Shown in pieces: positions 9,001 through 39,000 of a stretch of DNA of 41,869 bases (positions are counted from its first letter, which is position 1; every line of letters starts with the position of its first letter). Source of the DNA: a virus (taxonomy: Duplodnaviria > Heunggongvirae > Uroviricota > Caudoviricetes); the IMG/VR virus record IMGVR_UViG_2531839449_000046; one strand, given 5' to 3'. The position numbers were made by a program.

Positions 9001-12000
9001 ACGTTCTGGCGCAAAGCCGGAGTGATAACCCGCCAGCTTGACGGGCATGGGTTCACGATGCAGGACTGGAGAAATTATTTGAGCTACGTAGGCGAAAATT
9101 GCCGATGGATGTTCGAAGAGCGCCCAAACCATCAGCGCGGAACCGTCTGGCACAAAAAGGGATTTGATTTCCTGCTTAACGACAATACCTACCTGAAAGT
9201 TCGTGAGGGTGAACACGATGACCGATAATTTTTATGCGCCGCCCCATAGCATCGAGGCAGAGCAGGCGGTGATTGGTGGATTGCTTCTGGATGATGACAG
9301 CAGTGAGCGCGTCCAGAAAGTTCTGGCGATGCTGAAGCCCGATTCATTTTACAGCCGACCACACAAAATCCTTTTCGAAGAAATAACCAGAATGCACCGG
9401 GAGCAAAAGCCAGTAGATGGCCTGACGCTTTTCGATGAACTGGAGCGTAAATCGTTAACGGTGTCTGTTGGCGGTTTTGCTTATATCGCTGAGATCGCAA
9501 AGAACACGCCAAGCGCAGCAAACATCGTTGCCTATGCAATGCAGGTTCGTGAAACCGCAATGGAACGCTACGCCATCAACCGCATGACTGAAGCGACGGA
9601 ATTGCTCTATTCCCGCAACGGAATGACTGCGACGCAGAAGTACGAAGCTATTCAGGCGATTTTCACGCAACTGACAGACCATGCAAAAACCGGATCGCGT
9701 CGCGGCCTTCGCTCATTTGGCGAGGTCATGGAAGACTGGGTTAGCGACCTTGAGAAGCGATTTGACCCATCAGGCGAACAACGGGGAATGAGCACAGGGA
9801 TCCCATCGCTGGACAGGATGCTGTCACCGAAAGGTCTGGTGAAAGGCTCTCTGTTTGTCATTGGCGCTCGCCCTAAGATGGGGAAAACGACGCTATACAG
9901 CCAGATGGCAATCAATTGCGCAGTGCATGAGAAAAAGCCCGCTCTGATGTTCAGCCTTGAAATGCCAGGTGATCAGATACTGGAAAAACTGGTAGGGCAG
10001 AAGTCTGGTGTTAACCCGAATATTTTTTACCTTCCGGCGACAAATGACGCCGATGACGGCTATCAGGGTGATTACGATGGTGACTTCAACAGGGCGATCG
10101 AAACAGCCAATCGCTTGAGTGAAATCGACATGCTTTACATCGACGACACGCCGGGATTATCTCTGGCTCAAATCGTCAGCGAAAGCCGTCGAATCAAGCG
10201 AGAAAAAGGATGTGTTGGCATGATTCTGGTCGATTACCTGACACTAATGACCGCTGAGAAGGCCGATCGCAACGACCTTGCTTACGGCATGATCACCAAA
10301 GGACTGAAGAACCTTGCCAAAGAGCTTGATTGCGTTGTTGTGCTTCTGACGCAACTTAACCGCGCACTGGAAAGCCGAACCAATAAACGCCCATTACCAA
10401 GTGACTCACGAGATACAGGGCAGATTGAACAGGATTGCGATTATTGGGTGGGGATCCATCGTGAAGGTGCTTTTGATGACAGTGTTCCACCTGGTGAAAC
10501 CGAACTAATCCTTCGTCTCAATCGTCATGGCAATACCGGCACGGTGTATTGCATTCAGGCAAATGGCGCTATTTATGACACAGACCAACAGTCTGCTGAA
10601 ATGCGCCGACGTGAACGCGAGGAACCGCAGTCCAAGAAGAAAGGAGGATTCTGATGAATAAAAAACAATTAGCCATTCTCGAAAAGGCATGGGATGCGCA
10701 AATATCATACGCTTTGAAAGAACAGGCACTACCAATAATCCAGACCAAATCGAAAATAGCCAGGCAGTTATGCGATGGCGGATTCCTGAACGAAGTTGAG
10801 ATTACGCGCCAGATGGTAACGTTCAAAGGGTATGAGATAAATCATTGAACCGCCCCGGGTTTCCTGGAGAGTGTTTTATCTGTGAACTCAGGCTGCCAGA
10901 TCATCGTTTCCGATGGAAGCATAATAAGCTTTTTCTGCTTCTGCCGGAGGAGTATGGCCCAGCCTTCCCAGCAATCGTCGATTGTTATACCAGTCCACCC
11001 ACGTTAGTGTGGCCAGTTCCACTTCTGCACGGTTTTTCCAGCTCTTACGGTGTATTACCTCCGCTTTGTAAAGACCATTGATGCTCTCAGCCATCGCGTT
11101 GTCATACGAGTCGCCTGTACTCCCTGTTGATGCCAGTAATCCGGCTTCTTTTAGTCGCTCCGTATAGGCCAGTGACACATACTGAGAGCCTTTATCGCTG
11201 TGATGGATGGTGCCAGACGGACGACGGGCCCACAACGCCTGCTCCAGCGCATCCAGCACGAATGTCGTTTCCATAGACGATGAGACCCGCCACCCCACGA
11301 TGTATCCGGCAAACACATCAATGATAAACGCCACATAGACGAAGCCCTGCCATGTGCTGACGTAAGTAAAATCAGCCACCCACAGCTGGTCAGGTCGTTC
11401 TGCCACGAACTGACGGTTTACGCGGTCGCCTGCGGCAACGGCTTTCCGGCTGATGGTCGTACGGACCTTTTTACCCCGGAGAACACCGGCAAGTCCCATA
11501 ACCGCCATGAGACGTGCCACTGTACATCTGGCCACCCTGATTCCTTCCCGTAACAACTGACGCCAGACTTTACGCACACCGTACACCTGATGATTTTCAT
11601 CGTATACGCGCTGTATCTCTCTCTTCAGCCAGTCGTCGTGCTGCGCACGGGCACTGCGTTTATCCGGATGATGTCGCTGTTGCTGACAATGGTAATACGT
11701 TGACGGGGCAATATGCAGTTCGCTGCATACCGGTCCGACCCCGTACTGCTCACGCAGCTTATCCAGCAGTGGCATCATTTTTTCCAGAGGCGGTCGAACT
11801 CCGCCTTCGCAAAATAAGCGGAAGCCTGGCGAAGGATATCGTTACTGCGGCGCAGTTCACGATTTTCACGTTCCAGCTCTTTCAGACGCTGACGTTCAGC
11901 GCTGGTGAGCCCACCATCACCGCCCCCGGTATCCCGCTCATGCTGGCGAACCCAGACACGCAGAGTCTCCGGCGTACAGCCAATCTTTGGGGCAATGGAA

Positions 12001-36000: not shown

Positions 36001-39000
36001 ACATGGCAGGGCTTCGTCTATGTGGCGTTTATCATTGATGTGTTTGCCGGATACATCGTGGGGTGGCGGGTCTCATCGTCTATGGAAACGACATTCGTGC
36101 TGGATGCGCTGGAGCAGGCGTTGTGGGCCCGTCGTCCGTCTGGCACCATCCATCACAGCGATAAAGGCTCTCAGTATGTGTCACTGGCCTATACGGAGCG
36201 ACTAAAAGAAGCCGGATTACTGGCATCAACAGGGAGTACAGGCGACTCGTATGACAACGCGATGGCTGAGAGCATCAATGGTCTTTACAAAGCGGAGGTA
36301 ATACACCGTAAGAGCTGGAAAAACCGTGCAGAAGTGGAACTGGCCACACTAACGTGGGTGGACTGGTATAACAATCGACGATTGCTGGGAAGGCTGGGCC
36401 ATACTCCTCCGGCAGAAGCAGAAAAAGCTTATTATGCTTCCATCGGAAACGATGATCTGGCAGCCTGAGTTCACAGATAAAACACTCTCCAGGAAACCCG
36501 GGGCGGTTCACATCTCCAACGACCCAGCACTCTGCTGTAGCCCCAAAAGATATGAATAAGAACATAGCAGTAAGAAATTGCTTCACGCCAACCTCCTTAG
36601 TTTTGAGCAGGATACCATGAAAAAAGTAAACATCTTTTGCCTACTTCACATTTGAATGGTTTGTCATTAGGATGTTTCCGGTTTTTAAATATGGAAATTG
36701 ATATGAAGAGGATTATTGGCGTCGTTGCTGGCGCTATATTGTTATCTGGGTGCGCAACTATTGTTGGTGACGAAACGCAGCTTGTGCAAGTGAACAGCAA
36801 TCCTTCCGGTGCGAGCTTTAAGGTAAAAGACGAATCAGGCGTGATTGTTGCGCAAGGTAAGACCCCGCAAGGAGTAACTCTTGCCAAGTCAGATGGTAGT
36901 TATTTTGGCAAAAAGAGCTACCAGATCACTATGGAAAAGGATGGGTACGAACCAGTAACCCTGCCAATCAAAGCCAATGCTAATGGCTGGTATATTGGTG
37001 GAAACCTTGTGTTTGGTGGGTTAATTGGTTGGCTTGCTGTAGATCCTTTTAATGGTGGGATGTATACCTTGAAGCCAAAAGAGGCAAACGCATCTCTTAT
37101 ACCATCAACAAAGCAAGACTAATAAATAGGACCCACCTTCAGGTGGGTTTTTTGTACAAATCCTTCAGCGTATCAAACACCATCTTCTTAACAAGCTCTG
37201 ACTGCTCATCAGCGAGTCGTTCTGCATCGTCGCGATATCCAGTCACAGGCGATGGTTTTGATAGAGCATCTTGGACGATTTGTAACAACTCGGAGTTCAT
37301 TGATCTCCCATTCGCCTCCGCCCTGAATTTTAATTTCTCCCTTACTTCCATAGGCATACGGAAGTTAAAGTGCGGATCATCTCTAGCCATGCCATCACTC
37401 CAAGTTAGTGTATTGACATGATAGAAGCACTCTACTATATTCTCAATAGGTCCACGGTGGACCTATATTGTGAGGTGAATATGAAAGGAATGAGCAAGAT
37501 GCCGCAGTTCAATTTGCGGTGGCCTAAAGAAGTATTGGATTTGGTCCGCAAGGTGGCGGAAGAGAATGGTCGGTCTGTTAACTCTGAGATTTATCAGAGA
37601 GTAATGGAAAGCTTTAAGAAGGAAGGGCGCATTGGCGCGTAAAGTTGAAGCCCCAACTGCGGGAACAGTCAGGGCTTCGGTTGTCAGTAAATCCGTGGAG
37701 AAAAACCAACGTGAATAGTATAGCAATTTTAGAAGCAGTGAACACCTCTTATGTACCATTCAACGGTCAGCAAATTATCACCGCCATGGCTGCCGGAGTT
37801 GCATATGTTGCGATGAAGCCAATCGTTGAAAACCTTGGAATGAGCTGGTCAACGCAGCAAACAAAACTCATGAAGCAGATTAGCAAATTCAACTGTGTTC
37901 ATATGAACATGGTTGCCGCTGATGGGAAGCTTCGTAAGCTACTCTGCCTTCCTTTGAAGAAGTTAAATGGATGGCTGTTCAGCATCAACCCTGAGAAAGT
38001 TCGTGCTGACATCCGTGATAAACTGATTCAGTACCAGGAAGAATGCTTTAGCGTGCTGCATGACTACTGGACTAAAGGTCATGTATTTAACCCACGCAAA
38101 GCTAAAAAGGCGTTGCCGGGTAAAATCACCACTGAACAGCAGGAAGCCATTAAACAACTCGTCATGAGTCGCGGTCAGTCTCTGCCAAAAGAAAAACAGG
38201 CTAAGGCGATGATCACCATGTGGTCGTCACTAAAATCCCATTTTGGATGTTCGTACAAAGAAATCAGTGAGGAGCAGTTTACCGAAGCACTATCACTTGC
38301 AGCTCGAGTTCCACTTGAAGGTGAGTTCATTGGCAAACAAGAGAAGAAAACCAACGAGCTTTCTGCAAAAGAAGCAAACAGCCTTGTATGGTTATGGGAT
38401 TATGCCAACCGCTCACAGGCATTATTCCGCGAACTGTATCCGGCGCTAAAACAAATTCAATCGAACTATTCCGGCAGATGCTACGACTACGGTCATGAGT
38501 TCTCGTATGTTATCGGAATGGCGAGAGACGTTTTAATAAACCACACACGAGATGTTGATATTAATGAGCCAGACGGACCAACGAATCTTTCCGCATGGAT
38601 GAGACTTAAGAATAAAGAATTACCTCCTTCAGTACATAACTACTGACAGATAACCAACGCAACGACCCAGCTTCGGCTGGGTTTTTTTATGCCCAAAATT
38701 CACCGTAGCTACTCAGCGGCTATGGCCTTGAGAGATAGCACTACACAAAAAGTGTAGTGCAAAAAGCAAACAAATACTCACCGTAGCCACGCTGCGGCGA
38801 TTCCTTGTATCTGGAGCAAATTAAATGACAGACATTACAGCCAATGTGATTGTATCTATGCCTTCGCAACTCTTCACTATGGCGCGTTCTTTTAAAGCCG
38901 TAGCCAATGGCAAAATTTATATCGGTAAAATTGACACGGACCCGGTAAATCCTGAAAACCAGATTCAGGTTTATGTGGAAAACGAAGACGGCTCTCACGT

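Follow-up and report, generated by a model that had tools for sequence, protein, structure and literature searches.

Two inverted IS1203 copies around the late region of a P22-like prophage of O111-type Escherichia coli are very probably separate simple insertions

The window, the whole stretch of 41,869 nucleotides that was analysed, is a P22-like (lambdoid, short-tailed) prophage whose host is an EHEC O111-type E. coli and whose integration site is the 5' end of sbcB; the att core TTTCACGATTACG lies within this gene. It is collinear with the sbcB/dacD prophage of the O111:H- strain 11128 (NC_013364.1, 2617396-2661087) at 99.85-100% identity, and the names of its genes were carried over from this annotated, near-identical relative. 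On that annotation, the genes stand in the P22 order nin-Q-lysis-terminase-portal-scaffold-coat-ejection proteins-immI-tailspike, and the late and immI regions resemble those of the Salmonella phages epsilon34 and UPF_BP1. The early operon ends, upstream of the first insertion sequence (IS), with a DnaB-like helicase gene (9203-10654, + strand). The nin genes follow, and then Q (16432-16950), tRNA-Asn and tRNA-Thr (17014-17169), the holin, endolysin and Rz genes (17412-18629), a block for terminase, portal, scaffold and coat proteins (20810-27106), and genes for head completion and ejection, of which the gp16 homologue (33018-34859) is the last. From 37139 to 40762 extends a stretch with immI and the tailspike gene; it contains a Mnt-like gene (37139-37390, - strand), divergent promoter-like sites (37413-37446), sar RNA (37643-37710, - strand; RF00262, 95.6 bits), ant (37645-38646) and the tailspike gene itself (38825-40762).

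Two copies of one IS interrupt this order. An inverted-repeat search returned two 1,310-nt arms, at 10846-12155 (- strand, copy 1) and 35201-36510 (+ strand, copy 2), which are spaced 23,045 nt apart and whose homology stops at the IS ends; at 99.92% identity over 1.3 kb, a chance origin of the repeat is ruled out. Both copies belong to IS629/IS1203 of the IS3 family, IS1203 (Paton & Paton 1994, as cited in PMC3271280) being the O111 isoform of IS629. Copy 2 matches at 100% over 1,310 bp features annotated as ‘IS3-like element IS1203 family transposase’ in many O111 genomes, and the IS1203 copies of two sister loci (L001 and L002) match copy 1 at 100%, which bears out the description in an earlier note on this DNA of two inverted 1310-bp IS629-like copies. 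The element is abundant: of 5,426 complete E. coli genomes, 4,253 have IS1203 matches, at 31,377 places in all, and IS629 is present in ~40 copies per O111 genome.

Both copies encode the same OrfA (108 aa; Pfam HTH_Tnp_1, 2.4e-12) and the same OrfB (296 aa; HTH_21 and rve, 9.3e-28). The genes are orfA 12101-11775 and orfB 11778-10888 in copy 1, and orfA 35255-35581 and orfB 35578-36468 in copy 2. In each copy the two genes overlap by 4 nt, at the A6 run GGAAAAAATGATG, and each copy has an ALIL frameshift pseudoknot (RF01497, 121.5 bits; 11820-11704 in copy 1 and 35536-35652 in copy 2), and from this overlap and pseudoknot an OrfAB fusion made by -1 frameshifting is predicted. The termini, TGAACCGCCCCGG...CCGGGGCGGTTCA, are TG...CA imperfect inverted repeats, with the initial 13 positions identical and 22 identical among the initial 25. 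Base-by-base comparison of the copies leaves a single mismatch, at IS position 156, where copy 1 (window position 12000, - strand) has T and copy 2 (window position 35356) has C. This mismatch is the third base of orfA codon 34 (TGT versus TGC), a synonymous change (Cys34); the earlier note had identical ORFs with at least one synonymous orfA change, and it placed the copy 2 base exactly but the copy 1 base, given as about 11996, 4 nt away from its true position.

Each copy lies in a small hypothetical ORF that is intact in relatives and has no Pfam match. Copy 1 interrupts, past codon 64, an 89-aa nin-region ORF (10654-12237, + strand; WP_001036037.1 in relatives), leaving parts at 10654-10845 and 12160-12237. 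Copy 2 interrupts, past about codon 18, a 122-aa ORF with a hydrophobic N-terminus between gp16 and immI (34884-36565, - strand; WP_001334102.1 in relatives), leaving parts at 36565-36514 and 35200-34884.

The target sites were compared with their empty counterparts. TCAT stands both to the left (10842-10845) and to the right (12156-12159) of copy 1, while the empty site, GATAAATCATCATGG, has only one TCAT in five relatives and is found in many genomes as an unbroken 1,996-bp match to the 2,000-nt flank query, as expected if, as had been proposed, copy 1 arrived by simple transposition. At copy 2 the flanks do not repeat exactly. Its left flank ends in TAT (35198-35200), which agrees with the ancestral sequence, and its right flank begins with CAT (36511-36513), so that two of the three bases are equal and the window reads GCGCATAT, the IS and then CATCTCC. 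In four sister prophages (L001, L002, L003 and L005) the same flanks adjoin as GCGCATATCTCC, with TAT, and this empty site also occurs as a single 1,997-bp piece in many genomes. No bases were lost at either site relative to the empty sites. Thus the earlier note was correct that copy 2 lacks an exact repeat, but its hint of a secondary event is at odds with the contiguous flanks in the four sisters; the comparison with IS-free prophages that it suggested instead reveals a recognisable, mismatched 3-bp duplication at copy 2, which points to two independent insertions. The T-to-C mismatch could be due to post-insertion mutation or to imprecise repair. A donor origin of the C at 36511, from an IS-circle junction of copy 1 (whose flanks would give ATGA), was considered and rejected, because the predicted ATG or TGA does not fit CAT and because copy 1 has the other position-156 variant. 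An imperfect duplication is in keeping with what is described for IS629 in O157 strains, in which duplications are 3-4 bp and flanking bases are identical at only 21/47 sites (PMC3271280, Rump et al. 2011).

Since each flank pair is contiguous in relatives, we consider it very probable, from these sequence comparisons, that the two copies are two separate simple IS1203 insertions, both recent and strain-specific. The copies probably derive from different donors, one with the T156 and one with the C156 variant; position 156 is T in 13 and C in 1 of the 14 further IS1203 copies that five sister strains carry in the same prophage. These 14 copies occupy 14 other sites, with the insertion sites differing in every strain, and at 12 of the 14 the flanks repeat perfectly over 3 bp or more, with duplications mostly of 3 bp. 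A copy in strain 2013C-4081 seemed at first to be shared with copy 2, since an equal 104-aa truncated ORF is annotated there, but that IS is really inserted at window-equivalent position 36560, a distance of 47 bp, and has the duplication AAG. The exact junction strings were unmatched in viral contigs, species-representative genome contigs and metagenome contigs, and in the phage collection no record spans the copy 2 region with the IS.

We also weighed whether one or both copies might be an assembly artefact, a repeat misplaced or misoriented. IS629 at ~40 copies per genome is a classic cause of misjoins, and none of the collections searched contained the source assembly, but the ends of each copy are precise and its target duplication fits the empty site, the flanking DNA is what the collinear relatives predict, and the one base by which the copies differ distinguishes two real circulating variants; we rate such an artefact as very unlikely.

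Tn10 and Tn5 are composite transposons in which two inverted IS copies surround a cargo, and the geometry here is alike. The 25.7-kb unit 10846-36510 might have moved as such a transposon, or copy 2 might be the product of a secondary IS-mediated rearrangement, for example an adjacent deletion or IS-IS recombination, and both the imperfect repeat at copy 2 and the CAT at both outermost flanks (10843-10845 and 36511-36513) could be read in this way. Such a transposon would be a foreign unit with a duplication at its outer ends only. What we find is that IS-free relatives have each flank pair joined without a break, that either IS comes with a duplication of its own, that both sites are without missing bases, and that the cargo, the late region, is native and keeps the gene order of the phage (99.97-100% identical to 11128); moreover, both outer ends of the unit would be IRR. 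The CAT/CAT match is a coincidence, as copy 1 has its own TCAT duplication and both empty sites exist. With native cargo and a separate duplication for each IS, block transposition of the unit did not occur, and the empty sites effectively refute this origin, which we regard as barely credible.

Two separate insertions leave the question of whether the inverted repeats have inverted, or can invert, the DNA between them. The bracketed segment (12156-35200, 23,045 bp, + strand) is in its native orientation, being collinear with strain 11128 and four other strains at 99.97-100% identity. It contains the nin genes, Q, both tRNAs, the Q-to-holin interval, which is expected to hold pR', and the lysis, structural and ejection genes up to 34859; the helicase gene, the immI region and the tailspike gene are outside. 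The suggestion in the earlier note that an inversion would uncouple Q and pR' from the lysis and structural genes is thus wrong, as all of these would stay linked. An inversion, if it happened, would instead cut off nin-Q from the early rightward operon (pR and the replication genes that end at 10654), and would separate immI and the tailspike gene from late transcription.

We searched for inverted junctions in the 5,426 complete genomes with two queries, V1, in which the left flank runs into the inner-right flank taken in reverse complement, and the converse query, V2; 0 records reached a coverage of at least 80% for either, in a set in which no genome carries both copies, so that the queries are powerless for this exact pair and the conclusion leans on analogous pairs. 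Ten such inverted IS1203 pairs are present in the five sister prophages, and the bracketed DNA is in native order in 10/10; that is, only one orientation was observed among the related genomes. We therefore think it highly probable, judging from this comparison, that the 23-kb segment keeps the ancestral phage order and that the inverted orientation of the pair is incidental. There may be a minority inversion isomer, or the orientation may have been chosen by the assembler. RecA-dependent recombination could in principle invert DNA lying between inverted repeats of 1.3 kb, and to that extent the earlier claim that repeats of this size can invert the segment stands, but no isomer was found.

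A stronger reading is that the pair is a reversible inversion substrate, such that flipping 12156-35200 severs Q from pR and thereby locks or unlocks induction. The length, near-identity and inverted orientation of the repeats suit this, and homologous recombination between inverted prophage repeats is known to invert segments of EHEC chromosomes (PMC7430833). Against it, besides the absence of inverted junctions (which has little power) and the native order of the 10 pairs, we note that the annotation of the identical 11128 prophage lists no site-specific invertase, that copy 1 has TCAT on both of its own flanks, which indicates no net odd number of exchanges, and that the sites vary by strain, as for random hits and unlike a selected architecture. 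We rate this reading, like the assembly artefact, as very unlikely. Slightly less probable again is that a reversible RecA-dependent inversion through the pair, in use or co-opted, parts Q and the whole late region from pR; if true, the lysogen population would contain both inducible and locked prophages, as bet-hedging in prophage domestication. For this reading, the near-identical bracket that arose independently in the sister strain 14614 could be a hint of convergence. Scans for promoters and terminators around both copies found nothing above the shuffle expectation for a regulatory role.

In the very probable case of two incidental insertions, each copy would have been placed by ordinary IS3-type transposition, with an OrfAB transposase made by -1 frameshifting and staggered cleavage of the target giving the 3-4 bp duplication. 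Copy 1 would have entered the small nin-region ORF right past the helicase gene, with the duplication TCAT. For copy 2 the target would have been the small ORF that separates the gp16 homologue from immI; its duplication is TAT, now CAT on the right. The pair would then be a passive substrate for rare RecA-dependent inversion and not a switch. Two small accessory genes would have been lost, and the early and late operons may be subject to partial polarity.

A further consequence may lie in genome size. The prophage is 41,066 bp without the IS copies and about 43,693 bp with both (+2.6 kb), and the P22 headful is 43,400 ± 750 bp, independent of genome length (PMC8402733). If the capacity of P22, borrowed here by analogy, applies, a prophage of ~43.7 kb would be at or above the ~43.4-kb headful, and the terminal redundancy used for circularisation after injection would be eroded. 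Oversizing for headful packaging is a more probable consequence than any effect of inversion and the most concrete one predicted for the two copies, and lost redundancy would add to prophage decay.

The phenomenon itself is already known, and IS629/IS1203 insertions are ordinary in such strains, in which they are a well-documented source of strain variation and of prophage decay. The window shares with the IS629/IS1203 insertions described in EHEC prophages (PMC3271280) the element (100% at the nucleotide level), the preference for prophages (which hold 62% of IS629 copies), the often imperfect 3-4 bp duplications and the variability of sites from strain to strain. It differs from them only in its two exact insertion points, and flank searches of the 5,426 complete E. 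coli genomes found neither insertion. The two sites are thus private strain markers that could be used for IS-typing, with little significance beyond it. An insertion similar to copy 2 is that of the stx2::IS629 Stx2 phage of O157 FRIK1275 (PMC7430833), in which IS629 is within the Q-dependent late operon of a lambdoid prophage. The FRIK1275 phage was shown to still form plaques and to express downstream genes; the window prophage, unlike that phage, has a second copy in its early operon. Since the stx2::IS629 phage stayed fully functional (PMC7430833), copy 2 may barely affect expression of the tailspike gene.

The closest comparison is with the sister sbcB prophages (11128, 14614, 2013C-4081, 110512 and 08-4455), which share both the P22-like prophage and its attachment site with the window. 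Both window sites are unoccupied in 11128, where IS1203 lies within the scaffold gene and also downstream of the coat gene; in 2013C-4081 and in 110512 there are four copies of the element apiece. Both 11128 and 14614 also have inverted IS1203 pairs, with every insertion site unlike those in the window. The pair in 14614, at the 3' ends of the helicase gene and of gp16, brackets almost the same 23 kb as in the window.

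The inverted pair of insertion sequences is real, yet it represents routine accumulation of IS629/IS1203 in an EHEC prophage, a phenomenon that is already known. The only long repeat in the whole window consists of two inverted arms, copy 1 at 10846-12155 (- strand) and copy 2 at 35201-36510 (+ strand), each of 1,310 nt and 23,045 nt apart; homology between them ends precisely at the IS ends, which are imperfect TG...CA inverted repeats. Direct comparison over the 1,310 nt found a single mismatch, at IS position 156: copy 1 has T (window 12000, - strand) where copy 2 has C (window 35356), and orfA codon 34 reads TGT in the former and TGC in the latter, Cys in both. 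The earlier note had described this pair correctly, except that its first coordinate for the base difference was 4 nt off. Both copies encode identical OrfA (108 aa, matching HTH_Tnp_1) and OrfB (296 aa, matching HTH_21 and rve) proteins, and both carry an ALIL frameshift pseudoknot (121.5 bits each) that spans an A6 run at the orfA/orfB overlap. Over its full length, copy 2 is 100% identical to features annotated as 'IS3-like element IS1203 family transposase' in many O111 chromosomes, and IS1203 is the IS629 isoform of O111 (PMC3271280). The element occupies at least 31,377 places among the matches listed, in 4,253 of 5,426 complete E. coli genomes, and reaches at least ∼40 copies per O111 chromosome among those matches.

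The window is a P22-like prophage. Its left 10.8 kb matches an EHEC O111 prophage, as does the whole window with the IS copies removed (99.85-100% identity, same order); the best-annotated reference is that of O111:H- strain 11128. The genes run from early left genes, a LexA-type repressor, cro, cII, replication genes with a DnaB-like helicase and nin genes, through Q, two tRNAs, lysis genes, terminase, portal, scaffold, coat and ejection proteins including a gp16 homologue, to immI (Mnt, Arc, Ant and sar RNA), tailspike and acyltransferase. Comparison with K-12 places integration at the 5' end of sbcB (exonuclease I), where the 13-bp core TTTCACGATTACG lies within the first codons (positions 896 and 44588 in the 11128 record, L001, and 4793 in the K-12 record, L006), and the phage provides a replacement 5' end for sbcB. 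The P22-type immI control region (37413-37710) is intact, with divergent promoter-like sites at 37413-37446 and the sar antisense RNA at 37643-37710 (- strand, 95.6 bits), which overlaps the ant start. Fourteen of the 21 differences from strain 11128 fall within ∼880 bp of the replication genes (8463-9340), a clustering that suggests a small recombination patch rather than scattered mutation. An ORF of NUMOD4/HNH type (29228-29761) separates the gp10 homologue from the following tail gene. The window shares it with 11128, 2013C-4081 and 08-4455, whereas 14614 and 110512 lack it, a pattern resembling that of a mobile homing-endonuclease gene polymorphism.

Each copy represents a simple insertion, independent of the other. 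Empty sites were sought with 2,000-nt queries that joined 1,000 nt from each side of each IS. The copy-1 query gave an uninterrupted 1,996-bp match in many genomes, indicating that 4 bases were duplicated, while the copy-2 query gave a single 1,997-bp match in the nearest relatives, indicating that 3 were. Read directly in relatives (n = 5 for site 1; n = 4 for site 2, where strain 110512 has diverged), the empty site 1 is GATAAATCATCATGG and the window has GATAAATCAT, the IS and TCATCATGG, a perfect TCAT duplication, as expected from the simple transposition proposed earlier for copy 1. The empty site 2 is GCGCATATCTCC and the window has GCGCATAT, the IS and CATCTCC, a TAT duplication in which the right copy is CAT. 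The secondary event that the earlier note suspected at copy 2 is thus not supported, as its flanks are contiguous in relatives and the duplication is recognisable. Neither site has lost any bases, and relatives have each pair of flanks uninterrupted; we can therefore also exclude an adjacent deletion, exchange with a third IS copy, and relocation of the 25.7-kb unit (10846-36510) as a composite transposon. Nor is an imperfect duplication unusual, as atypical ones do occur for IS1203: only 21 of 47 IS629 sites have identical flanking bases (Rump et al., PMC3271280), and one of 14 copies in sister prophages has a mere 2-bp duplication. This last copy (duplication TC) lies at 39432-40741 of the 2013C-4081 record, L003.

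The differing alleles at position 156 fit an origin of the two copies from separate donors; T is found in 13 of the 14 sister-prophage copies and C in one, and the C form is common elsewhere in O111 genomes. None of the 5,426 complete E. coli genomes has either insertion, and contigs from viruses, species-representative genomes and metagenomes contained neither junction string; each insertion is thus private to the source strain, and its origin is probably recent.

The bracketed segment (12156-35200) keeps the ancestral orientation: in all five sister prophages, it aligns to the strand to which its flanks align. Queries for an inverted isomer, in which the left flank runs into the reverse-complemented inner-right flank or vice versa, matched no record at ≥80% coverage, a result with no power for this exact pair, as no genome in the collection carries both copies. 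The sister prophages are more informative: 11128, 14614 and 08-4455 have two IS1203 copies each, and 2013C-4081 and 110512 have four each, giving 14 copies at 14 other sites with 10 inverted pairs among them, and collinearity is preserved in every assembly. The pair of strain 14614, at window-equivalent 10649 (-) and 34778 (+), brackets nearly the same segment, which is uninverted. EHEC chromosome segments do get inverted by inverted prophage repeats (PMC7430833), and RecA-dependent inversion of the bracket is mechanistically possible; nothing here points to its having occurred or being selected. Moreover, inversion would not uncouple Q and pR' from the lysis and structural genes, as had been proposed, because the bracket encloses Q (16432-16950), the Q-to-holin interval with two tRNAs where pR' is expected, the lysis genes (17412-18629) and every head and ejection gene as far as 34859, all of which would stay linked. 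Instead, inversion would cut off nin-Q from the early rightward operon, whose last gene, the helicase, ends at 10654, and immI and the tailspike gene (38825-40762, outside the bracket) from late transcription.

Across the six strains, 16 IS1203 copies occupy 16 distinct sites of one ∼41-kb prophage, with two to four copies in each. The sister-prophage sites are at window-equivalent 61, 506, 1111, 4325, 10314, 10649, 18978, 25296, 27162, 34778, 36560 and 37131, with two more in diverged DNA. If ∼40 copies per genome (a minimum among the matches listed) were evenly spread, ∼0.3 would be expected per prophage compared to the 2-4 observed, but this enrichment is only indicative, as strains were partly picked for showing IS hits. 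The interval from gp16 to immI, the position of sieA in P22, holds two small accessory ORFs (36637-37122 and 34884-36565). The first is lipoprotein-like with a weak PEGA-domain match; the second, of 122 aa, has taken independent IS1203 hits in the window and 2013C-4081, 47 bp from each other.

Copy 1, antisense within the early operon and upstream of nin-Q, interrupts a hypothetical ORF of 89 aa after codon 64. Copy 2, a sense insertion within the late operon after gp16 and before the tailspike gene, interrupts the 122-aa hypothetical ORF, whose N-terminus is hydrophobic, after about codon 18. Polarity may be modest, given that an stx2::IS629 phage kept downstream late-gene expression and plaque formation (PMC7430833). 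Measured from the att core, the 11128 prophage is 43,692 bp with its two IS copies and 41,066 bp without them, from which we calculate ∼43,693 bp for the window prophage with its two copies. The P22 headful is 43,400 ± 750 bp, independent of genome length (PMC8402733); if this capsid packages like that of P22, terminal redundancy would be essentially lost and single virions could no longer recircularise. This predicted loss, together with a nonsense codon in a Rha-family regulator gene (18830-19354), points to a decaying prophage. The nonsense codon is codon 63, created by C-to-A at 19017 when compared with the intact 14614 allele. In 11128, one nucleotide is deleted from this gene near window-equivalent 18870, and in 2013C-4081 an IS1203 splits it at window-equivalent 18978. 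In all, the gene was independently inactivated three times within one prophage lineage.
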